64,000 bases of DNA from Gammaproteobacteria bacterium (GTDB lineage: Bacteria > Pseudomonadota > Gammaproteobacteria > JABABF01). The notes under the pieces were generated by a model. The model made no database searches. It was not told where the DNA came from and saw only the letters and a list, made by a program, of their open reading frames with translations. The DNA is taken from contig OZ250153.1 of the NCBI GenBank assembly GCA_965237805.1, positions 1,632,001-1,696,000 of the forward strand, read 5' to 3'. Positions 32,898 through 64,000 of this stretch are shown in pieces. The number at the start of each line of letters is the position of its first letter. The first letter of the stretch is position 1. The translations under genes and the position numbers were made by a program.

Positions 32898-33275
32898 ATG
32901 GCGACTGAGACAGCGCAGAGCGTTGCCGCACCCCCTGCCAGCGGTGCGGCGCGCGGTATCCAGCTGAGCGAAGCTGCCGCCGCCCACATCCGCGGCCAGT
33001 TGGAGCAGCGCGGCTGCGGCCTCGGCGTGCGCCTGGGGGTTAAGACCACCGGTTGCTCGGGCCTGGCCTACACGCTGGAGTTTGTCGACACCGCTGCCTA
33101 TGGTGACCAGGTCTACGAGGCGCACGGCATCAAGTTGTATGTCGATCCCAAGAGCTTGGTCTACCTAGATGGCACGGCGATGGACTTTACCCGCGAGGGA
33201 GTCAACGAAGGTTTGGTTTTCAGCAATCCGAACAGCAGCGGCGAGTGCGGTTGCGGCGAAAGCTTTCACATCTAG
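32898..33275 (+). CDS. iscA: A-type carrier IscA
   Basis: TTGCSGLAY and CGCGESF. Confidence 0.93.
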   Translation: MATETAQSVAAPPASGAARGIQLSEAAAAHIRGQLEQRGCGLGVRLGVKTTGCSGLAYTLEFVDTAAYGDQVYEAHGIKLYVDPKSLVYLDGTAMDFTREGVNEGLVFSNPNSSGECGCGESFHI

Positions 33276-33288
33276 CGGGGCGCTGGCC

Positions 33289-33858
33289 GTGGCGGAACTG
33301 GCTGCTGAGGCGATGGCTGCGGCGGCTGACTTGGCAGCGCCGCCTGCCACCATCGACTTTTTTGCATTGTTTGGCTTGCCGTGCCGCTATCCGATGGATC
33401 GCCCGCAGTTGGATCGCCATTACGATGCCTTGCAGCGCCAGCTGCATCCCGACAACTATGTCGCCGCCAGCGCCGCCGAGCGCGACTTGGCCCTGCGCCG
33501 CTCCAGCCAAGTGAACGAGGCCTATCAGACACTGCGCTCGCCGCTGGCACGCGCCCGCCATCTGCTCGTCTGCCGAGGGGTGGCCAGCGATGACGAGTTG
33601 CAGGAGGGCACTGTCGACGACAGCGCCTTTCTGATGGCCAATCTCGAGCTGCGCGAGCAGATCGCGGCGCTGGCCGAGCGCGGTGACGGCCCTGGCCTGC
33701 GTCAGCTGGCACACTCCCAGACGGCGGCCTTTGAGGCCTTGGCCGAGGACTTTGGCCGCGCCGATGTCGAGGGCCGCGGCGCTGCCGCGCTGGAGCTGTT
33801 CCGGCGCATGCAATTTGTCGCCAAGCTGCGCGACGATGCCGAGCAGCGAGCCGCCTGA
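33289..33858 (+). CDS. hscB: Co-chaperone HscB (start approximate)
   Basis: J-domain HPD, NEAYQTL and FLM..LELRE. Confidence 0.88.
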
Positions 33859-35777
33859 TGGCCCTGTTACAGATCCAAGAGCCCGGCACCGCCCCGCAGG
33901 AGCGCCCCCGGCGCCGTGCGGTCGGCATCGATCTCGGCACCACCCACAGCTTGGTGGCGACGGTGCGCGACGGTGTCCCCCAGCTGCTCGCCGATGCCGC
34001 CGGGCACGAGCTATTGCCCTCCGCTGTCTATTACCCTGAGGGCGGCGAGGCGGTGGTGGGAGCCGAGGCACTGGCGGCGAGCAGGCGGGAGCCGGAGCGC
34101 GTCCTGCTGTCGATCAAGCGCTTGCTCGGCCGCGGGCGCGACGAAGTCGAAGAGCACGGTGGGCAGCGTTTGGTGGCCGATGGCGATGGCGCGGTCAAAC
34201 TGCTCAGCGCCGCCGGTGAGCACAGCCCGGTGCTCGTCTCCGCCGAGATTCTCGGTGCCCTCAAGCGACGCGCCGAGCAGGCATTGGGCGGCGCGCCAGA
34301 GGGTGTCGTCATCACCGTGCCGGCCTATTTCGACGACGGCCAACGCCAGGCCACCGCGGCGGCGGCGCAGCTCGCCGGTTTGCCCTTGTTGCGCCTGATC
34401 AATGAGCCCACCGCGGCGGCTTTGGCCTACGGCTTGGACAGCGGTGCGCAGGGGCTGATCGCAGTCTACGACCTGGGCGGCGGCACCTTCGATCTGTCGC
34501 TGCTGCGGCTCGAGCGCGGCGTCTTCCAGGTGTTGGCGACCGGCGGCGATACCTCACTCGGCGGCGATGACTTCGACCGCGCCGTGGCGCTGTGGTTGAT
34601 CGGCCCGGACACCGCTTGGGCAGAGCTGCCGCCGCCGACGCGCCAGCGCCTGTTGGCGGCGGCGCGCGAGGCGCGCGAGGCGCTGGGTGATGCGCCACAA
34701 GTCGAGCTGCGCTGGGATGGCGGCGAGGGCCTCGCGGCGCTCAGCCGCACCTTGACGCAGCAGGATTTTGCGGCGCTCGCCACCCCCTTGGTCGAGCGCA
34801 GTCTGGCGGTTTGTGAGCGCAGTCTGCGCGATGCCGGTCTGGCGGTCGGCGATATCGGCCAGCTGATTCTGGTCGGCGGTGCCACCCGCATGCCGGTGGT
34901 GCGCCGTGCGGTGGCCGAGTGGTGCGGGCGCGAGCCGTTGGCTGGCATCGATCCCGATCGGGTGGTCGCGATGGGGGCCGCCCTGCAGGCCGACAGTTTG
35001 ATCGGCAACCGCAGCGGGGGCGATGCCCTATTGCTCGATGTGGCACCGCTGTCGCTGGGTATCGAGTTGATGGGGGGATTGGCCGAGGTGGTCGTGCCCC
35101 GCAACACGCCCTTGCCCGCCCAGCGGCAGCGCACCTTTACCACCGCCCGCAATGGGCAGACGGCGCTCTCTGTGCATGTGGTGCAGGGAGAGCGCGATCT
35201 GGCGAGCGATTGCCGCTCGCTGGCACACTTCGAGCTGCGTGGCATCCCGCCGCTGACGGCCGGTGCGGCGCGCATCGAGGTTGGCTTCCAAGTCGATGCC
35301 GACGGCCTGCTCTCGGTGACGGCGCGCGAACTCAGCACCGGGGTGCGCAGCGAGATCGAGGCGCGTCCTTCTTATGGCATCGGTGGTGATGATGTGCAGC
35401 GCATGTTGCGCCAAGCCTTCGACAGCGCTGAGGAGGACAGCCGAGTTCGTCTGCTGGTCGAGCAGCGGCTGGCGGCGGAGCAGCTGCTGGACAGCGTGGA
35501 GGGGGCCTTGAGCAGCGATGGTGAGCGTCTGCTGGCAGCCGCCGAGCGGGAGCAGCTGGCGCAGGCCAGCCAACAGCTGCGCAGCCATGTCGCGGCGCTG
35601 TCTGAGTCTGCCGACGAGGGGCAGATCGCCGAGTTGCGCACACAGGTAGAGCACTTGAACGAACTCAGCACGCCCTTTGCCGAGCGGCGCATGGACGATG
35701 CCCTGCGCACCACCTTGGTCGGTCGCTCGGTGACGCAGTTGCAAGGCGATATCACCGCCGAGGCCGAGCTGTCGTGA
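33858..35777 (+). CDS. hscA: Chaperone HscA
   Basis: [25 protein letters not shown] and QVDADGLL. Confidence 0.94.
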
Positions 35778-36118
35778 CCCGCATCGTCGTATTGCCGCAC
35801 GACGGGCTGTGTCCCGGTGGCGCGGTGCTGGAAGCCGCGCCGGGCGAGAGCATCTGCGCCGCGCTATTGCGCGATGGCATCGAGCTCGAGCACGCCTGCG
35901 AGATGTCCTGCGCCTGCACCACCTGTCATGTCATCGTGCGCGAGGGCTATGATTCGATGGAGCCGCCAGACGAGCTCGAGGACGATTTGCTCGACAAGGC
36001 TTGGGGCTTGGAGCCCCAGTCGCGGCTCGGCTGCCAGGCGGTGCCGTCGCAAGACCAAGACGAGCTGGTCGTCGAGATTCCGCGCTATACCATCAACATG
36101 ATCTCGGAGAGCCACTGA
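35774..36118 (+). CDS. fdx: ISC 2Fe-2S ferredoxin
   Basis: [14 protein letters not shown] and SRLGCQ. Confidence 0.94.
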
Positions 36119-36159
36119 GCGTCGGTGTGCGCCGAGGGCAAAGCGTCACAGGGAAAATC

Positions 36160-36354
36160 ATGCGTTGGACTGATGTGCAAGAGATAGCGATCGCTTTGGC
36201 CGACAGCGGGATCGAGCGCGACCCACTCACGGTGCGCTTCACCGACTTGCGTCGCTGGGTGATCGAGTTAGCGGATTTCGACGACGATCCAGATCGCTGC
36301 AACGAGCGTATTCTCGAGGCCATTCAAGCGGCGTGGCTGGAGGAGATAGATTAG
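36160..36354 (+). CDS. iscX: IscX
   Basis: MRWTDVQEIAIAL..VRFTDL..LEAIQAAW. Confidence 0.92.
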   Translation: MRWTDVQEIAIALADSGIERDPLTVRFTDLRRWVIELADFDDDPDRCNERILEAIQAAWLEEID

Positions 36355-36460
36355 GCGCTTTCGCGCAAGACGCTTGGCAATACGCGCACGATGGCCTTAC
36401 AATAAGTAGCTGTCCTGATTTTAGGGCATTTCCCCCTGAGCAAATGTCGCGATGCCCGCC

Positions 36461-36874
36461 ATGGCCGTTGAGCGTACCCTCTGCATTGTCAAGCCCGATA
36501 TTGTCGGTGCCCAGCGCATCGGTGCCCTGTGTGAGCGCATTGAACGCAACGGTCTGCGCATCGTCGAAATGCGCATGGTGCGGCTGGCGCGCGAGCGTGT
36601 CGCTACGTTTTACGGCGAGCACCGGGGCAAGGCTTTTTTTGATTCCCTGCTCGATTTCATGTGCTCTGGTCCAGTTGTGGCACAGGTGTTGGAGGGGGAG
36701 GGTGCGGTGGCCAGCTTCCGCCAGCTGATGGGCCATACCGACCCGACTCAGGCGGCCCCCGGCACCCTGCGTGCAGACTTTGCCCAGTCCATTGATGCCA
36801 ATGCGGTACACGGCTCCGATTCCACTGACTCTGCGCGCCGCGAGATCGATTTTTTCTTCGGTCAATCGTCGTGA
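36461..36874 (+). CDS. ndk: Nucleoside-diphosphate kinase
   Basis: ERTLCIVKPD, PGTLRADFA and NAVHGSD. Confidence 0.95.
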   Translation: MAVERTLCIVKPDIVGAQRIGALCERIERNGLRIVEMRMVRLARERVATFYGEHRGKAFFDSLLDFMCSGPVVAQVLEGEGAVASFRQLMGHTDPTQAAPGTLRADFAQSIDANAVHGSDSTDSARREIDFFFGQSS

Positions 36875-37989
36875 GCACAGCGCAGACCGGCCTGTTGGCG
36901 GCGGTGCCGAGCCAGCCCTTATTGGGTGTGCCGCGCTCTGGGCTCGAAGCTTTTTTCCACCGTTTGGGAGAGCCCTCTTTCCGCGCCTCACAACTGTTGC
37001 AATGGGTGCACCATGCCGGTGTCACCGACTTTGCCCAGATGAGCAACTTCGGCCTGCGCCTGCGCTCTCGGCTCAGCGGTGCCGCCGAGCTGTTGCCAGC
37101 GCGTTTCAGCGAAGAGCAGCGCGCTGCCGACGGCTGCCGCAAGTGGCTGTTGCCGCTGGCTGGTGGCGGCGCTGTCGAGACGGTGTTCATCCCCGAGCAG
37201 CGGCGCGGCACACTGTGTGTTTCCACCCAGTTGGGCTGCGCGCTGGGATGCACTTTTTGCGCCACCGCTCAGGGTGGGTTCAAGCGCAACCTCAGCAGCG
37301 CTGAGATCATCGCTCAGGTGTGGCGTGCCCACGAGGCTCTGGATGCCTTTAGCCGCGGCCCGCCGCGTCGTATCACCAACATCGTCTTCATGGGCATGGG
37401 CGAACCCCTGCTCAACTTGGAGCAGCTCAGCGCCGCCGTGCGCCTGCTGCGCGACGATGATGCCTATGGCATTCCAGGTCGCAAGCTGACGCTGAGCACG
37501 GTGGGTGTGGTGCCGATGCTCGATCGCTTGGATGCCTCCCTGCAGCTGGCGCTGGCCTTGTCCCTACACGCGCCCAACGATGAGCTGCGCGAGCGCTTGG
37601 TACCGCTCAATCGGCGTTTCCCCATCGCCGAGCTGCTGGCTGCCTGCCGCCGCTATCTGGATCGTCTCGGGGATTCGCGCCGCTCGATCACCATCGAGTA
37701 CACGCTGATCGACGGCATCAACGATACGCCAGCGCTGGCACAGGATACGGCGCGGCTGTTGCGCGGGCTGCGCTGCAAGATCAATTTGATCCCCTGCAAT
37801 CCGATCGCGGGTGCGCCGTGGCGCAGCTCCCCTCCGGCGGCGGTGGCGGCCTTCCGTCAAGTGCTGCGCGAGGCTGGCTACACGGTGACGGTGCGCTCCA
37901 CCCGCGGCGAGGACATCGCCGCCGCCTGCGGTCAGCTGCGCGGCCAAGTGCCCGGCGGCATCGCACGACGGCAGGAGTTGCGGGCATGA
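36871..37989 (+). CDS. rlmN: 23S rRNA/tRNA adenine C2-methyltransferase RlmN
   Basis: CALGCTFC radical-SAM motif, MGMGEP, SLHAP and AACGQL. Confidence 0.95.
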   Translation: MSTAQTGLLAAVPSQPLLGVPRSGLEAFFHRLGEPSFRASQLLQWVHHAGVTDFAQMSNFGLRLRSRLSGAAELLPARFSEEQRAADGCRKWLLPLAGGGAVETVFIPEQRRGTLCVSTQLGCALGCTFCATAQGGFKRNLSSAEIIAQVWRAHEALDAFSRGPPRRITNIVFMGMGEPLLNLEQLSAAVRLLRDDDAYGIPGRKLTLSTVGVVPMLDRLDASLQLALALSLHAPNDELRERLVPLNRRFPIAELLAACRRYLDRLGDSRRSITIEYTLIDGINDTPALAQDTARLLRGLRCKINLIPCNPIAGAPWRSSPPAAVAAFRQVLREAGYTVTVRSTRGEDIAAACGQLRGQVPGGIARRQELRA

Positions 37990-38379
37990 CACGGCGGCAG
38001 GAGTTGCGAGCATGACACGACGGCAGGAGTTGCGAGCATGACACGACGGCAGGAGTTGCGAGCATGACACGACGGCAGGAGTTGCGGGCATGACACGGCG
38101 GCAGGAGTTGCGGGCATGACACGACGGCAGGAGTTGCGGGCATGACACGACGGCAGGAGTTGCGGGCATGACACGACGGCAGGAGTTGCGGGCATGACAC
38201 GACGGCAGGAGTTGCGAGCATGACACGGCGGCAGGAGTTGCGGGCATGACACGACGGCAGGAGTTGCGGGCATGACACGACGGCAGGAGTTGCGGGCATG
38301 ACACGGCGGCAGGAGTTGCGAGCATGACACGGCGGCAGGAGTTGCGGGCATGACACGACGGCAGGAGTTGCGGGCATGA
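37964..38379 (+). repeat. 16 x 26-bp tandem array, CACGRCGGCAGGAGTTGCGRGCATGA
   Basis: 416 bp = 16 units counted directly; the first unit holds the rlmN stop and the last holds the ispG start. Confidence 0.97.
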
Positions 38380-39473
38380 AATGTCAGCTGCCACCGCCAC
38401 CGCGGCGTGCCAGTCGCCAGCTGCATGTCGGTGCTGTCCCGGTCGGCGGCGGCGCGCCGATTTCAGTGCAGACGATGACCAATACCGACACCTGCGATGT
38501 GCAGGCGACGGTGGCTCAGCTGCTGAGCGTGGAGCGTGCCGGAGCCGACATCGCCCGCGTCTCGGTGCCGAGCCAAGATGCCGCCAAGGCCTTCGCCGAG
38601 ATTCGCCAGCGCGTCTCGCTGCCGCTGGTGGCCGACATTCATTTTGATCACCTCATCGCCCTGTCGGTCCTCGAGCAGGGCGTGGATTGCCTGCGCCTGA
38701 ATCCGGGCAACATCGGGCGCGAGCCGCATATTCGCAGCGTGGTCGATTCCGCGCGCGAGCACGGGGTGCCGCTGCGCATCGGTGTCAATGCCGGTTCGCT
38801 GGAGCGCGATATCCTGCACCGCTACGGCGCACCCAGCGCCGAGGCGATGGTGGAATCGGCACTGCGCCATGTGGCCATTCTCGAGCGGCTCGACTACAGC
38901 GATTTCAAAATCAGCGTCAAATCCTCCGATCCGCGCATGGCCATCGCGGCCTATCGCAGCCTGGCCGCACGCGTCGAGCAGCCGCTCCATCTGGGCATCA
39001 CCGAGGCTGGCGGCAGTCTGTCCGGCACGGTGAAATCGGCGATCGGTCTCGGTGCCTTACTGCTGGAAGGCATTGGCGATACCCTGCGCATTTCGCTGGC
39101 CGCGCCGCCCGAAGAGGAGGTGCGCGTGGGTTGGGAGCTGCTCAAGGCCTTGCGCCTGCGCAGCCGCGGGATCAATCTCATCGCCTGCCCCGGTTGTGCG
39201 CGGCAGAACTTTGATGTCATCAATGTGGTGGGGGAGCTGGAGCAGCGTCTGGCCGATGTCAGTACGGATCTGGATGTTGCGGTGATCGGCTGCCATGTCA
39301 ATGGCCCCGGCGAGTCGCGTAGCGCCGATGTCGGCTTGACCGGCGCGTCTCCCCAGAGCTTGGCTTATGTCGACGGCAAAAAATCTCGCAAAGTTGCCGC
39401 TGGCGAGATTGTCGATGTGGTGGAATCGCTGGTGCGTGAGCGCGCCGCGCGCCCGATCGCCAGCGAGGGCTGA
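38376..39473 (+). CDS. ispG: HMBPP synthase IspG
   Basis: [32 protein letters not shown] and GCHVNGPGE. Confidence 0.95.
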
Positions 39474-39480
39474 GCGAGCG

Positions 39481-40779
39481 ATGGCCGCCAGCGGGGATTT
39501 TCAGAGCCTGCGCGGCATGTCGGATTGCCTGCCGGCCGATGTGATGCCGCGGCGGCGCATCGAGCAGGAAGCTTGCGCACTGTTAGAGGGTGCTGGCTAC
39601 GCCGAGATCCGCCTGCCATTGCTGGAAGACGAAGCGTTGTTTCAGCGCTCTTTGGGCGGCGCTGACGATATCGTCGTCAAGGAGATGTACCGCTGTGTTG
39701 GCAGCGGTGGCGAGGCCACCAGTGGCGTTGCCTGCCTGCGTCCGGAGGGCACCGCCCCCTGTGTGCGCGCCGCGCTGCAACACGGCCTGTTGCGCAGCGG
39801 TGCCAAGCAGAGGCTGTGGTACGGCGGTGCCATGTTCCGGCACGAGCGGCCACAGCGTGGCCGCGAGCGCCAGTTCCACCAGATCGGCGTCGAAGCCTTC
39901 GGCTTTGCCGGGCCGGATTTGGATGCTGAACTGATCGCCCTCAGCGCGCGCCTGTGGCATCGGCTCGGCATCGCCCAGCACCTCAGCTTGCAGCTCAACT
40001 CGCTGGGGGATGCCGAGGATCGGCAGCGCTACAGCGAGGCACTGGCCGAGTTCTTGCGCGGCCACGCCGCTCAGCTCGGCCCCGATGACCGTCTGCGCTT
40101 GGAGCGCAGTCCGTTGCGCGTTTTGGACAGCAAGGATGCAGCGACCCGTGCGTTGCTGTCCGAGGCACCGCTGATTGATGACTATATCGGCGATGCCGCA
40201 CGGAGCCACTGCGAGGAGCTGAGGCAGTTGCTGGCGGCCATCGGCATCGATTGCCACCTGAATCAACGCCTCGTGCGCGGACTCGACTATTACAATCGCA
40301 CAGTTTTCGAATGGCAGGCCAAGAGTTTGGGGGCACAGAGCGCTGTGGCTGCTGGCGGGCGTTATGATGGCTTGGTGGAGCAGCTTGGCGGGGCGGCGAT
40401 GCCAGCGGCTGGTTTTGCACTCGGCGTAGAGCGCCTCGCCCTGCTGTTGGCCGACGATTCGCCGCCGCCGCCGGATGTCTACCTAGTGTCGGCGGACGGT
40501 GTCGCAGCCAGCGCCGCGCAGCTGGCCGAGACATTGCGCGATCGGCTGCCGCGGCTGCGCCTGGTGTTGCACTGCGGCGGGGGCAGCTTCAAGACCCAGC
40601 TGCGCAGTGCCGATCGCAGCGGTGCCGCGATGGCGCTGTTGCTGGGAGAGGACGAGCTGCGAGAGCACCATGTGGTGGTCAAGGAGTTGCGCCGACCCGG
40701 TGCCAAGCAACTCAGCTTGCCGGTGGATGCAGTCACCGAACTGTTGGATACCCATATAGCAGAGCGAGACGATGGCTGA
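39481..40779 (+). CDS. hisS: Histidine--tRNA ligase
   Basis: LRPEGTA, FRHERPQRGR, RGLDYY and AGGRYD. Confidence 0.95.
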   Translation: MAASGDFQSLRGMSDCLPADVMPRRRIEQEACALLEGAGYAEIRLPLLEDEALFQRSLGGADDIVVKEMYRCVGSGGEATSGVACLRPEGTAPCVRAALQHGLLRSGAKQRLWYGGAMFRHERPQRGRERQFHQIGVEAFGFAGPDLDAELIALSARLWHRLGIAQHLSLQLNSLGDAEDRQRYSEALAEFLRGHAAQLGPDDRLRLERSPLRVLDSKDAATRALLSEAPLIDDYIGDAARSHCEELRQLLAAIGIDCHLNQRLVRGLDYYNRTVFEWQAKSLGAQSAVAAGGRYDGLVEQLGGAAMPAAGFALGVERLALLLADDSPPPPDVYLVSADGVAASAAQLAETLRDRLPRLRLVLHCGGGSFKTQLRSADRSGAAMALLLGEDELREHHVVVKELRRPGAKQLSLPVDAVTELLDTHIAERDDG

Positions 40780-41578
40780 TCAGCCGATCTACGATAGCGA
40801 GTTGTTGGAAACGCTACAGGACTGGTGGCAGCGCTACGGTCGCAACTTGGTGGTATTGGTGGCGGTGGCCGCGGTGGGTGTGGGTGTTTGGCAGTGGCGC
40901 GAGCGTGCCCTGTCCGTGGCGATGCGAGCCGCTTCGGATGACTACGAAGCGCTGGTCGTGCAGCTGGCCGAGTGGGATGACCGGCCAATCTCGGCGGGTG
41001 CCGGGCAGGCCGTGCCAGAGCGACAGGAATTGGCGCAGCAGCTCATGGTGGCGGCCGATACCATCAGCGAGCACTATCCCGACAGCCACTACGCCCACTA
41101 TGCGCAATCTATCAAAGCGCGCCTGTTGATCGAAGGCGGCGACTTGGAGGGTGCCTTGCAGTTGTTGGAGGCGCTCGCCCTGCGCCTGCCAGCGGACAGC
41201 GATTTGCAGGAATTGCTGGTGATGCGCCGTGCCCGCATCTTGGAGGCGCTGGGGCACCCCGCCGCTGCAGAGCGCTTGTTACGCACCAGCCCGCAGCTGA
41301 TCTACCCACAAGAATATCAGCTGCTGCTGGGCGATCTATTGCGTCGCCAAGGGCACCCCAAGGCGGCCATGCAGGCCTATGCCAGCGCGGTGGAGCTGTA
41401 CCGCGGGCAACAGCGGGGAGAGAATATCCCCGTCAGTTTGCGCCTGCATTTGGAATCGCTGTCTAGTACGCTCGCCACGCTGCAGCTGGCCGAGGCTGCC
41501 AGTAGCACCGGCATCCCCGGCATTGACATCGACGCGCCGTTGCAGCTGCTCACAGAAGAGCCTGACGAGCAGCCCTGA
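40772..41578 (+). CDS. yfgM: YfgM family TPR membrane protein
   Basis: WW..YG followed by a TM helix and TPR-like helices; syntenic position. Confidence 0.75.
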   Translation: MADQPIYDSELLETLQDWWQRYGRNLVVLVAVAAVGVGVWQWRERALSVAMRAASDDYEALVVQLAEWDDRPISAGAGQAVPERQELAQQLMVAADTISEHYPDSHYAHYAQSIKARLLIEGGDLEGALQLLEALALRLPADSDLQELLVMRRARILEALGHPAAAERLLRTSPQLIYPQEYQLLLGDLLRRQGHPKAAMQAYASAVELYRGQQRGENIPVSLRLHLESLSSTLATLQLAEAASSTGIPGIDIDAPLQLLTEEPDEQP

Positions 41579-42714
41579 TGCGCTGCGCACTGTCCCTCTT
41601 GCCGCTGCTATTGCTGGCTGCCTGTAATTTTCTCGGTAGCCCGGGGGAGCGCCCACAGCCACTACCAGAGTTCACCGCACAGCTGGCAGCCTCGCTGCTT
41701 TGGCAACGCGATATCGGCAACGGTCAGCCACGCAGCGGGCGGCTGCAACCGGTGGTGCACGATGGGATCCTCTATGTTGCCACTGCCAATGGCGTGGTCG
41801 AGGCCGTGCGCACTGAGGATGGTGAGCCGCTGTGGTCGGCCCGTCCGCTGTCCTCGATCACCGGCGGGGTCAGTTTGGGGGCTGGTGTGGTCTTGGTCGC
41901 TGGTTCCGTCGGGGCCGTCGTGGCGCTGGCGATGCGCGATGGCATACCGCGCTGGCAAAGTCAGCTGGATTCAGCAATACTGGCACCGCCAGCCAGTGGC
42001 GATGGGCTGGTCGCGATCAGCACGGCGGACGGGCGGCTCTACGCGGTGGCGACCGAAGACGGTGCCCCCTTGTGGAACTACCGTAGCCGCACCCCGTTGC
42101 TGGACTTGCACGGGCACAGCTCGCCCTTGGTGTTGGATGATGCGGTGGTGGCGGGCTTCTCGGGTTCCCGCTTGGCGTCCTTGGATCGCTCTGACGGCAC
42201 GCTGCGCTGGGTTGTGCGCACCGACAATCCCTCCGGCTCGACACCGGTGGCACGGCTGCGCGATATCGATGGCCAGCTGTTGCTGGATGGTGACACGATC
42301 TACATCACGACCTATCAAGGGGGTATCACCGCTGTCGACAGGAACCGCGGGCGCTTGCTCTGGTCACAGCCGGTGACGGCATTACACGGCCCGGTCAGTG
42401 CGCTCGGCTCATTGTTTGTGGTCGGTAGTGATGGCGAGATCAGCGCGTGGGACAAACTCAGCGGGGTCGTACGCTGGCGAGTCGAAAGCCTGCGCCACCG
42501 GCAGCTCAGCCCGCCGTCGGTGGTGTCGCACTACTTGGCTTTTTGCGGCCAAGCAGGTTGGTGCCAAGTGCTCAAGCAGAGCGACGGCTCCTATGCGGCG
42601 CGTTTCCAACACAGTGCGGGCGGTGTCAGTGCAGCACCGGTCGCCGATGGCGACCGCCTTTATATCTACGGTGACAGCGGTGTGCTCGAAGCTTGGCAAC
42701 TGGTCGAGCTTTGA
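41578..42714 (+). CDS. bamB: Outer-membrane assembly lipoprotein BamB
   Basis: Lipobox LLAAC, PQQ-type repeats and RLRDIDG; syntenic position. Confidence 0.88.
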   Translation: MRCALSLLPLLLLAACNFLGSPGERPQPLPEFTAQLAASLLWQRDIGNGQPRSGRLQPVVHDGILYVATANGVVEAVRTEDGEPLWSARPLSSITGGVSLGAGVVLVAGSVGAVVALAMRDGIPRWQSQLDSAILAPPASGDGLVAISTADGRLYAVATEDGAPLWNYRSRTPLLDLHGHSSPLVLDDAVVAGFSGSRLASLDRSDGTLRWVVRTDNPSGSTPVARLRDIDGQLLLDGDTIYITTYQGGITAVDRNRGRLLWSQPVTALHGPVSALGSLFVVGSDGEISAWDKLSGVVRWRVESLRHRQLSPPSVVSHYLAFCGQAGWCQVLKQSDGSYAARFQHSAGGVSAAPVADGDRLYIYGDSGVLEAWQLVEL

Positions 42715-42732
42715 CCCTGAGCTGGGTGTGTG

Positions 42733-44175
42733 ATGACACTGCCTGTCGCGACCTTGATCGGGCGGCCGAATGTCGGTAAGTCGATGCTATTCAATTGCCT
42801 GTGCGGTGGCCGCGATGCCTTGGTGGGTGCCGAACCGGGGCTGACCCGAGATCGCCGCTACGGTCGTTGCCGCGACCGGCACGGCGATTTCCGTTTGGTC
42901 GATGTGGGCGGCGTCGATGATGCCGCGCAGCTGGCACCGGCCCCGCTGGCGGCGATGGTGCAAGAGCAGCTGGCGCAGGCCATCGACGAAGCCGCCTTGC
43001 TGCTGTTCGTCGTCAGCGCACGCGAGGGTCTATTGCCCGTCGAGCGCAGCATCGCCGAGCGGCTGCGGCGTGCAGGGAGACCTTGGTGGCTTGCGATCAA
43101 CAAGATCGATGGCCTTGACCCCGACTTGGCGCAGGCCGAATTCAGTCCACTGGCCGCTGCCCGCAACTTTGTGCTGAGCTCTGCCCACCGGCGGGGGATC
43201 GCCGAGTTGCGTGGCGGCGTGGCGCAGGAGTTGGCCGGTCGCACCGAGGCGACGGCACCGGGGCAGTCCGCCGATGTCGCGCCAGCGCAGGATGTGGAGC
43301 AGCCTTTGCGCGTGGCTGTGATCGGCCGCCCCAACGCTGGCAAGTCGACCCTGCTCAACTGCTTGCTCGGCGAGCGACGCATGGTGGTGGATGCGCAGCC
43401 CGGGGCGACGCGGGACAGCATCGCGGTGCCGCTGAGTCGCGGTGGCTGTGACTACAGCTTGGTGGACACCGCTGGCCTGCGCCGACACGGTGACCGCGGC
43501 AGCAGGGTGGAGCGGCTGGCTGCGATGAAAGCGCTGGATGCGGTGCGCGCCAGCGATGCGGTCGTGCTCATGGTCGATGCCACGCAGGGTGCGGTGGATC
43601 AGGATCTGCGGCTACTCGGGCAGGTGTTGGAGCTCGGGCGTCCCCTGGTGTTGGCCCTGAGCAAATGGGATGCGGTGTCGCCGGTGCAGGGGGAGGCTCT
43701 GAGGGCCGAGCTGCGCCGCCGCTCGGCCTTCGCCGATTTTGTGCGCGAGCTCCCCGTGTCTGCTCACAGTGGCCACGGCATCGCCGAGCTGTTTCGAGTG
43801 CTGGAGGAGCTGCGTGCGAACTCGTTGCGTGTTCCGGGCAGCGCCACGGCGCTCAACGACATCTTGCGCCGAGCAGTTGCCGAGTGTGCACCGCCGCTGT
43901 CCGGGCGGCACCGCATTCGGCTGCGCTACGCTCATTCGGGCGGTAACCGCCCGCCCTGTGTCGTCATTCACGGCAGTCAGGCGAGCAGTACGCCGGTGTC
44001 CTATAGACGCTATTTGGAGCGCCGCTTCCGCGTCGCGATGGCACTGGTCGGATCGCCGCTGAAATTGGTGTTCCGCGATGCTGACAATCCCTACGCCGAT
44101 CGCCCCAACCGGCTGACACCGCGTCAGCAACGCCGCCGCCGCCGGCTGTTGCGCCATGTGCGCAAGGTGCGCTGA
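42733..44175 (+). CDS. der: Ribosome biogenesis GTPase Der (EngA)
   Basis: Tandem GRPN.GKS domains and a KH-like C-terminus (RLRYAH, SYRRYLE). Confidence 0.92.
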   Translation: MTLPVATLIGRPNVGKSMLFNCLCGGRDALVGAEPGLTRDRRYGRCRDRHGDFRLVDVGGVDDAAQLAPAPLAAMVQEQLAQAIDEAALLLFVVSAREGLLPVERSIAERLRRAGRPWWLAINKIDGLDPDLAQAEFSPLAAARNFVLSSAHRRGIAELRGGVAQELAGRTEATAPGQSADVAPAQDVEQPLRVAVIGRPNAGKSTLLNCLLGERRMVVDAQPGATRDSIAVPLSRGGCDYSLVDTAGLRRHGDRGSRVERLAAMKALDAVRASDAVVLMVDATQGAVDQDLRLLGQVLELGRPLVLALSKWDAVSPVQGEALRAELRRRSAFADFVRELPVSAHSGHGIAELFRVLEELRANSLRVPGSATALNDILRRAVAECAPPLSGRHRIRLRYAHSGGNRPPCVVIHGSQASSTPVSYRRYLERRFRVAMALVGSPLKLVFRDADNPYADRPNRLTPRQQRRRRRLLRHVRKVR

Positions 44176-44196
44176 GTCGCAGCGCCGACCCGGCAC

Positions 44197-45390
44197 TCAG
44201 TGTGGGCGCATATAGAGTTGTGCCTGCTCTGGTTCGATGCGGAAATCGAAACGCCGAAGATAATCCATGCCGAGTAAGCCAGCAGCGTTGGATAGCCACG
44301 CCATGTTGGTGGTGGCGATGACCAACCCGTCGACCGTGCGCCCCTCAATGCCGAGGGGGCCGGCTTCGATCAGCTGGGCGGGCACATTGCCGCCGATAGT
44401 TTGCAGATAGGTGATGCCGCGGTCGCTATAGGACATGTGTGTGCGCTGTAGCACAGCGCCGTCAATCACGGTCAGCGAGGCTCCGGTGTCGATCAAAAAT
44501 GGCAGTTTGATCCCGCCGAAGTCCAGCTCGACCAGAAAATGGCGCCCGTGCCGTTTGAGTGGGATAGGCTGTCCCCAGCTGTACTCGTCGCTGTACTCGT
44601 TGCTGTGCTCGCGGTTGCTGTCCTCGACCACGGTTTTAGCCTCGGAGACTGCTTCCTCCTCCTCCCCCTCTTCCGTGCCGAACTGCTTGCGCTCTAAGGC
44701 CTGTGCGCGTTCGCCCCACTGCGGGTGATAGTAGATGCGGTTCAGGCTGTCGCGCGCGTCTGAGCGATCGCCGAGCTGCAGTTGGGTTGTCGCCAGCCGG
44801 TAGAACCACTCGCCATTGCCCGGGTCGAGTATGCTCAGCTCTCGCAACAGTGCCTTCACAGCTGGCCACTGTTTGCCTTGTTGCAATTCGGCCAGCTGCT
44901 GGTTGGCGGTGTTGGTGAATTCGGCTTCCAAGTCGCCGTAGGGTGCCAGTGCCGCATCGTTGCGCAGGGCTTGGTTGCGCAGTGCGCCCAACAGTTCCAA
45001 GGCTTGCTCGAGCTCGCCTTGGCTGCGCAAGATGCGGGCTTTGAGCAATCGGGCGGGGGCATCGTCCGGCACGTACTCCAGTAGCAGATTGAGCAGTTGC
45101 ACTAGCGGCTTGCTGCCGCGTTCGCCGACCCGGGGGATGGTGTATTCGAGCAGCTGCTTGCGGCAGCGATCCCAGCGCGCTGTATTTGTGCGGCAACGCA
45201 GGCGCAATCTCATCGCGGCAGCGGCGTAGTTGCTGGTGGCGAGTAGCTCGTCGAGCTGCCCCGAGGGTGCGGCGCGTGAGGATGTGTTGGGGGGGCTGTG
45301 CGAAGCTAGCCGTGGCGGCGCGTTATTCCGCCACGGCACTGCCCAAGCGATCACCAAGCCGATGACCAGTAGCATTGCCAAGCCCCGCAT
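44197..45390 (-). CDS. TPR plus retropepsin-like aspartic protease
   Basis: N-terminal signal/TM, TPR-like helices, FLIDTGAS and GLLGMDYL. Confidence 0.75.
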   Translation of the reverse strand: MRGLAMLLVIGLVIAWAVPWRNNAPPRLASHSPPNTSSRAAPSGQLDELLATSNYAAAAMRLRLRCRTNTARWDRCRKQLLEYTIPRVGERGSKPLVQLLNLLLEYVPDDAPARLLKARILRSQGELEQALELLGALRNQALRNDAALAPYGDLEAEFTNTANQQLAELQQGKQWPAVKALLRELSILDPGNGEWFYRLATTQLQLGDRSDARDSLNRIYYHPQWGERAQALERKQFGTEEGEEEEAVSEAKTVVEDSNREHSNEYSDEYSWGQPIPLKRHGRHFLVELDFGGIKLPFLIDTGASLTVIDGAVLQRTHMSYSDRGITYLQTIGGNVPAQLIEAGPLGIEGRTVDGLVIATTNMAWLSNAAGLLGMDYLRRFDFRIEPEQAQLYMRPH

Positions 45391-63498: not shown

Positions 63499-64000
63499 TT
63501 ATTTCTTGACACTCTCTAACCATTGCTCGTATTGCTTGGCTTTATGAGGTTCTCCTATAGAGTGGTAGAGATTGGCGAGGTTATAGAGGGATGTTGCAGT
63601 GTCGGGGTGATCAGAGCCGAGGGATTTCTCTCTGATAGCCAAGGCGCGCAGTAAGAGGGGCTCAGCTTTAGCATATAGGCCTTGGGAATAGTACAGATTG
63701 GCGAGGTTATAGAGGGATGTTGCGGTGTCAGGGTGAGCAGAGCCGAGGGATTTCTCGTTGATAGCCAAGGCGTATTGGTAGAGCGGCTTAGCTTTAGCGT
63801 ATAGGCCTTGGGATTTGTACAGTAGGGCGAGGTTATTGAGGGATATTGCAGTGTCGGGGTGATCAGAGCCGAGGGATTTCTCTTGGATAGTCAAGGCGCG
63901 TAGCAAGAGCGGCTCGGCTTTGGCGTATAGGCCTTGGGATTCGTAAAGTGCGGCGAGGTTATTGAGGGATGTTGCGGTGTCAGGGTGATCAGAGCCGAGG
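63499..64000 (-). CDS. TPR protein C-terminus with near-identical 126-bp repeats (continues beyond the window)
   Basis: LGSDHPDTATSL.NLA.LY.SQGLYAKAEPL units at a 126-bp period. Confidence 0.88.
   Translation of the reverse strand, partial: LGSDHPDTATSLNNLAALYESQGLYAKAEPLLLRALTIQEKSLGSDHPDTAISLNNLALLYKSQGLYAKAKPLYQYALAINEKSLGSAHPDTATSLYNLANLYYSQGLYAKAEPLLLRALAIREKSLGSDHPDTATSLYNLANLYHSIGEPHKAKQYEQWLESVKK

Follow-up and report, generated by a model that had tools for sequence, protein, structure and literature searches.

A tandemly repeated rlmN/ispG stop/start junction forms a chain of fifteen identical mini-ORFs and is probably a tolerated minisatellite

In the 64,000-nucleotide stretch of DNA analysed here (the window: positions 1,632,001 to 1,696,000 of the forward strand of contig OZ250153.1, assembly GCA_965237805.1 of a Gammaproteobacteria bacterium), the junction between the genes rlmN and ispG is occupied by an array of sixteen 26-bp units that includes fifteen identical nine-codon open reading frames (mini-ORFs). 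The locus raises the question of whether such a chain of minimal cistrons is a selected device that passes ribosomes from one gene to the next, or a by-product of repeat expansion. The explanation favoured here, to which a probability of about 0.7 is assigned, is that the array is a lineage-specific variable-number tandem repeat (VNTR, or minisatellite) produced by slippage or unequal crossover and tolerated at this position, the chain of mini-genes being a by-product.

The array covers window positions 37964-38379 on the forward strand and consists of the unit CACGRCGGCAGGAGTTGCGRGCATGA present 16 times, head to tail and in exact register. Tandem Repeats Finder (TRF) reported a period of 26 with 16.3 copies between 37957 and 38379, 95% matches, 0 indels and a score of 762. 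A degenerate 26-nt pattern gave 16 matches at exact 26-nt spacing, on the forward strand only, and the reversed control gave 0. As judged by the criterion of head-to-tail copies of high identity, the array is a tandem repeat. The 26-nt unit was not found outside the array in the 1,725,584-base single-contig genome by a pattern search allowing up to 3 mismatches.

Each unit comprises the final 8 codons of rlmN followed by TGA, and is simultaneously the ispG Shine-Dalgarno (SD) sequence AGGAG with an 8-nt spacer and ATG. At 16 of 16 junctions AGGAG ends 8 nt before the ATG, and stop and start overlap as ATGA. The 3' end of the 16S rRNA reads ...GGAUUACCUCCUAA, which contains the anti-SD CCUCC, and AGGAG is therefore able to pair with it. 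The mini-ORFs starting at 37986+26k have 9 codons each and translate as MTRRQELRA* in all 15 units; the 16th ATG, at 38376, is the start of IspG. Before the first array ATG lies the RlmN C-terminus, IARRQELRA*. Only 2 of the 26 unit positions are variable, both being A/G in CGA/CGG (CGR) codons, and the four haplotypes (AG 8, AA 3, GG 3 and GA 2; n=16) are intermixed along the array. Hence 10 of the 416 array positions deviate from the consensus; at the other 24 unit positions all 16 units agree, without singletons. The ATG, SD, spacing and frame are unbroken in each of the 15 internal units.

These results bear out the anatomy proposed earlier in a sequence-only reading of the locus. Pattern search and translation agree with its identification of the unit as the rlmN-stop/ispG-start junction, with ATGs every 26 nt and the 16th belonging to ispG. 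Its placement of AGGAG and of the ATGA overlap holds at every junction, and haplotype counts and translations reproduce its two variable arginine codons, four allele combinations and identical peptides. The same reading had suggested that the array might supply many copies of a peptide equal to the RlmN C-terminus. The presence of fifteen identical ORFs with a good SD speaks for a functional peptide MTRRQELRA. However, this peptide is the RlmN tail by descent, only the first two residues having been changed by the junction (Met-Thr for Ile-Ala), and the sole congener has no such ORF. The suggestion thus found no support, and a peptide function is exceedingly improbable.

The assembled copy number was compared with two sequencing runs, X1 and X2, which come from the same sample, are available as contigs only, and are probably the assembly's own source, so that they do not provide independent support. 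This circumstance could favour an assembly artefact, in which the true genome would have one or a few units and the assembler would have inflated the array, as could the lack of any listed piece spanning it, the X1 and X2 unitigs inside the array being 41-51 nt long. However, the depths of the five X1 unitigs listed, relative to the flanks (2.4, 7.1, 3.1, 1.7 and 2.2), agreed in 5 of 5 cases with the 31-mer multiplicities predicted from the assembly (2.76, 6.57, 3.0, 2.0 and 2.0, respectively), and the array unitigs carry specific variant combinations with 0 mismatches. As the X1 depths track the predicted multiplicities, a multi-copy array of about the assembled size (~16 copies), with these variant combinations, is present in the X1 reads. 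Over window 37600-38800, the 3 of 3 listed X2 pieces were 1.5-2.5 times deeper than predicted, which departs from the assembly; this excess may be due to library bias, or to longer arrays in part of the population, and if anything it points to more copies rather than fewer. From two further runs, X3 and X4, which share the study or species label, no piece matched the region, a result that does not prove absence. Inflation by the assembler is very unlikely.

Related genomes were examined for the same junction. In the sole congener (G001, 81% IspG identity) the junction is single and overlaps as GTGA, the RlmN tail reads ...QRRELRA* and IspG begins MKCS...; in two complete genomes related at the family level (G002 and G003) rlmN lies directly before ispG, with short unrepeated spacers. 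A scan pattern that fits both the array unit and the congener junction was run on two collections, and matched 19 loci in genome_contigs and 33 loci in metagenome_contigs, with a single match at each. No further arrays were present among these 52 pattern matches, and the only rlmN/ispG junction among them (1 of 52, L057) was that of the congener metagenome-assembled genome. The single junction in the congener, the family members without an array and the scan results together suggest that a coupled single junction is ancestral and that the array is lineage-specific, as far as these collections show. The comparison of copy number among relatives, which the sequence-only reading had named as a check, therefore yields 16 copies here as against 1 in the sole congener, at only 81% IspG identity, and no array in the family-level genomes. 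A search of the open literature (subscription papers and supplements lay outside it) found no account of a tandemly duplicated SD/start junction forming such a chain, and the repeats of mycobacteria discussed below were the only analogue it gave.

An origin by simple duplication would account for the details of the array. A 26-bp segment across the coupled rlmN-stop/ispG-start junction would have been duplicated in tandem, and replication slippage, unequal recombination or both would later have raised the number of copies to 16. In the first duplication, GGCAT, which stands before unit 1 and again 26 nt on, may have served as microhomology. The internal units are the exact bases 37964-37989 repeated, and Met-Thr in place of the RlmN Ile-Ala requires no substitution, because the Met-Thr codons arise at the seam of two copies. 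All four haplotypes are interspersed, as expected from unequal exchange. Loss of mismatch repair or recombination as the cause of the expansion was considered and rejected, mutS, mutL and recA all being present.

The regularity of the chain also has an arithmetic explanation. Duplication of an ATGA junction in units of length L puts each internal ATG in the frame of the following TGA if and only if L = 2 mod 3, a chance of one in three, and the frame between the two, being the old rlmN frame, is necessarily open. If L = 0 mod 3, the internal ATGs would share the frame of ispG, and other length classes give other frames. Since 26 = 2 mod 3 and the junction is an ATGA overlap, the mini-ORF chain follows arithmetically and is no evidence of design; since other length classes misplace the frames of the internal ATGs, a tolerance filter would favour the arrangement observed. 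Nor is the silence of the two variable sites significant: silent transitions that keep ATG and TGA are possible at 8 of the 26 positions, and both variable sites would be silent by chance with P = 0.086. This agrees with the caution in the sequence-only reading that two sites are weak evidence of selection, and of its interpretations the fallback of a neutral slippage VNTR has the better support in view of the single copy in the congener, the unit length of 2 mod 3 and this P value.

Several observations weigh against a merely tolerated VNTR. The lack of singletons at 24 positions is as compatible with constraint or purifying selection as with a very recent expansion, and none of the 15 internal units has lost its ATG, SD, spacing or frame. 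The other short-period non-coding arrays of this genome with a period that is not a multiple of 3 reach at most 5.1 copies, as against 16 here. The excess depth in X2 belongs on the same side, as does the comparison base for copy-number variability and conservation, which consists of one congener and one sample.

On the favoured explanation, the array would be tolerated for reasons inherent in its unit. Copy 1 would still terminate rlmN at its native TGA, and the last copy would still supply ispG with its native SD, spacer and ATG. The array would be harmless because any copy number restores the rlmN stop and the ispG ribosome site and closes the internal ATGs; the earlier claim that both genes are preserved at any copy number is upheld, as the array lies between the rlmN TGA and the ispG ATG. 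An N-terminally extended IspG is not possible, because translation from any in-frame upstream ATG ends at a TGA after nine codons. The cost would be modest, amounting to ribosome time and 15 nonapeptides per pass.

Predicted properties of the array RNA are in keeping with this explanation. It folds worse than 100 of 100 dinucleotide shuffles (z = +3.42), and the AGGA of each unit is predicted to be unpaired with a probability of 0.71-0.89. Such weakly self-complementary RNA should leave the ispG ribosome site exposed. Rho prefers C-rich, G-poor RNA, and the array, with 42.3% G and 23.1% C, is therefore expected to be a poor Rho loading site.

The predicted exposure of AGGA in a hairpin of each unit, CGGC[AGGA]GUUG, could also be read as the mark of a CsrA/RsmA sponge within the mRNA, in which sixteen CAGGAG motifs in hairpin loops would titrate a CsrA-like protein in the manner of CsrB/RsmZ. 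CsrB has ~18-22 CAGGA(N)G repeats, and the genome has a csrA-like ORF. However, that ORF scores 67.2 bits and falls short of the curated cut-off of 70.1, the GGA motif is no more than the ispG SD, the stem has 4 pairs of which two are G-U, and the array is not conserved. Rfam searched at E up to 1 gave no match in the array and one chance-level match outside it (IRES_Bip, 11.8 bits against 40). A scan of positions 33000-45000 for promoters and terminators found none in or beside the array; its single promoter-like site, at 36374-36403, lies upstream of ndk, terminator-like sites numbered 6, and both counts were no higher than in shuffled sequences. A sponge function is highly improbable.

As each mini-ORF carries the real ispG initiation region, translation of all 15 is plausible, and de novo initiation at all 16 ATGs is likely. 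A terminate-reinitiate relay through the mini-ORFs is likewise plausible, being mechanistically credible because each -4 overlap comes with an SD and with 22 nt of preceding sequence. According to reporter studies in E. coli and Haloferax, 13 of 14 -4-type gene pairs are strictly coupled (PMC6728339), the last 15 nt of the upstream gene are enough for termination-reinitiation in E. coli, and a gap of ~20 nt nearly abolishes coupling (PMC10666635).

The expected output at ispG was explored with a simple recursive model, flux_k = p x flux_(k-1) + d, in which p stands for the reinitiation efficiency and d for the de novo initiation per site. With p <= 0.5, the ispG flux was independent of rlmN and reached a plateau of d/(1-p) within <=5 units. 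Only with p >= 0.9 did the flux climb with copy number, reaching 8-16 d at ispG after 15 units for p of 0.9-0.97. The saturation at p <= 0.5 points to insulation rather than graded tuning. Most likely, as judged by this model, ispG translation would be set by the unit's own ribosome site and insulated from the rate of rlmN translation, and the array would not act as a graded tuner.

The principal rival explanation makes the array a translational relay or rheostat under selection, in which mini-cistrons pass ribosomes from rlmN to ispG, the 15 extra SD sites collect more of them, and a heritable copy number tunes ispG-hisS-yfgM-bamB-der. Every junction holds sequence sufficient for termination-reinitiation in E. 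coli, and a plain 390-nt spacer would abolish coupling where the array need not (PMC10666635). The 8-16-fold gain over de novo flux at the highest efficiencies would give such a relay an effect, and by copy number the array stands out among the short-period repeats of the genome, with all 15 units intact. However, a relay of this kind is not conserved, the junction being single-copy in the sole congener and the array absent in two family members; at an efficiency of <=0.5 the output saturates by <=5 units, so that 16 copies add nothing; recent expansion would by itself leave the units intact; and the silent variants are not significant. A selected relay is therefore unlikely. The sequence-only reading, which had proposed a relay tuning expression, was right as to the credibility of the mechanism, but no sign of design or selection was found and tuning would need p of ~0.9 or more. 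A variant in which the array is a selected, copy-number-variable device, with 15 minimal -4 cistrons insulating ispG-hisS-yfgM-bamB-der, ribosomes from 16 SDs being also funnelled to ispG at p >= 0.9, and slippage acting as a reversible rheostat, is quite doubtful.

The genes around the array form a compact series on the same strand (Table 1).

Table 1. Positions (in the window) of the repeat array and of the genes and reading frames around it.
Feature	Position	Strand	Basis or remarks
ndk, nucleoside-diphosphate kinase	36452..36874	+	NF001908 187.9 bits (cut-off 155); Pfam NDK
rlmN, dual-specificity RNA methyltransferase, 372 aa	36871..37989	+	TIGR00048 396.9 bits (cut-off 290)
Three antisense ORFs, 278, 198 and 164 aa	37564..38426	-	judged artefacts
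Partial homology preceding the array	37957..37963	+	GGCAT recurs 26 nt later at unit end; start of the TRF array at 37957
Repeat array, 16 x 26 bp	37964..38379	+	rlmN tail, SD AGGAG, 8-nt spacer and ATGA in each unit
Chain of 15 identical mini-ORFs	37986..38379	+	ATGA overlap with the next; same translation in 15/15
ispG, HMBPP synthase, 365 aa	38376..39473	+	NF001540 481.5 bits (cut-off 345)
hisS	39481..40779	+	TIGR00442 401.9 bits; match begins at residue 46 of the long ORF
yfgM-like TPR_21 protein	40772..41578	+	PF09976 80.7 bits
bamB	41578..42714	+	TIGR03300 320.3 bits (cut-off 285.2)
der (engA) GTPase	42730..44175	+	TIGR03594 410.3 bits (cut-off 306.7)

The last 8 codons of rlmN with the TGA are repeat copy 1, and the start of ispG is confirmed, at the level of sequence comparison, because the N-terminus is conserved in the congener (MKCS... 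vs MKCQ...). The probable start of hisS is the ATG 7 nt past the ispG stop, the longest ORF beginning at 39367. Junctions of the coupling type occur almost throughout ndk-rlmN-ispG-hisS-yfgM-like-bamB: the ndk TGA overlaps the GTG start of rlmN (GTGA, -4), and the spacings are +7 for ispG/hisS, -8 for hisS/yfgM-like (ATGnnTGA) and -1 for yfgM-like/bamB (TGATG). The downstream series ispG-hisS-bamB-der given in the sequence-only reading was found with all four genes present, but the yfgM-like gene between hisS and bamB had been omitted from it. In more distant relatives pilW and rodZ lie between rlmN and ispG, an example being the rodZ-like gene at locus L013 of genome G004; both are missing here and in the family.

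The three antisense ORFs were rejected as genes, as the reverse-complemented unit is stop-free in every frame and 0 of 3 has a Pfam family. For the 164-aa ORF, 0 of 6658 candidates was a homologue at E <= 0.001 in a search limited to lengths of 90-287 aa, a result that is uninformative on other arrays.

Other long, clean tandem arrays in the genome have units of 84 bp (6.8 copies, at a tRNA gene), 126 bp (15 and 12 copies) and 141 bp (9.5 copies). The first, at G000:C1:1211995-1212576 in genome coordinates and outside the window, consists of a tRNA-Arg(CCG) gene with some six tRNA-like copies of 84 bp behind it, head to tail (6.8 copies by TRF, at 97% matches). The copies have a different 5' acceptor arm, and a tRNA is called by aragorn in the first only. 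Here, too, a tandem expansion is anchored at the end of a gene. The two arrays of 126-bp units, at G000:C1:1695563-1697506 (window 63563-64000 and beyond; 15.4 copies, 92%) and at 1698522-1700027 (12 copies, 89%), are each open in exactly one minus-strand frame and probably encode 42-residue repeats of large proteins. An array of 20.8 kb at G000:C1:1598132-1618917, some 13 kb ahead of the window, is made up of 74 copies of a 282-bp unit (78% matches) and presumably encodes a giant repeat protein. A non-coding 13-bp repeat of 5.1 copies at G000:C1:309433-309497 is located ~330 bp downstream of the csrA-like ORF (308937-309107).

If the array is only a tolerated repeat, it shows which tandem duplications an operon absorbs, namely those in which stop, ribosome site and start are regenerated at both ends and every internal start is closed. 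It would also be a natural test object, with fifteen identical minimal cistrons joined by textbook -4 junctions before an essential gene. It would allow the processivity of termination-reinitiation, and the amount that de novo initiation adds per site, to be measured, where published reporters address single junctions only. If it were true that copy number controls ispG and the genes behind it, the locus would be a new kind of contingency locus, acting via translational coupling.

Comparison with known systems places the array near several classes. Contingency loci likewise have tandem repeats by a gene start whose copy number can be changed by slippage, but a change of copy number in the array shifts neither the frame of either gene nor the spacing of a promoter, and would therefore not act as an on/off switch; the array does not belong to this class. 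In CsrB/RsmZ RNAs many GGA motifs lie in hairpin loops, to which the AGGA tetraloops predicted on weak 4-bp stems in each unit might correspond, but the array is not a separate small RNA. Toxic minigenes, such as lambda bar with its peptidyl-tRNA drop-off, are very short ORFs with a strong SD, as here; inhibition by minigenes weakens as the ORF grows from 3 to 8 codons, and Pth counteracts it (PMC2490762). The mini-ORFs of the array have nine sense codons and lie beyond that series, hence they fall outside this class and their toxicity should be weak.

Closer are the upstream ORFs that deliver ribosomes, which have a mini-ORF without likely protein function and a termination site overlapping the start of a real gene (PMC12548453). 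The known ones are single, located in leaders and often conserved, whereas those of the array are 15-fold, intra-operon and not conserved. Pairs coupled at -4 (ATGA) have the same overlap, an SD in the upstream ORF and >=15 nt of upstream sequence (PMC6728339, PMC10666635). However, the known cases join two real genes, and the array chains 15 nine-codon by-products.

The closest known case is that of the VNTRs formed by mycobacterial interspersed repetitive units (MIRUs), which are tens of bases long. A MIRU lies between operon genes, has an ORF coupled at -4 nt to its neighbour and is thought to sit there with little effect on expression (PMC12548453), and at senX3-regX3 of the M. tuberculosis complex, tandem 77-bp and 53-bp copies vary in number among strains (PMC4213456). 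The array is alike in having short tandem units between operon genes, with a unit ORF at -4 to the flanking gene (ATGA at 16 of 16 junctions). However, MIRUs are dispersed and apparently mobile, whereas the array unit is confined to one locus and duplicates the gene junction found there, and it is shorter and more repeated (26 bp in 16 copies, as against 2-3 copies at senX3-regX3). The array thus resembles a MIRU but is not one.

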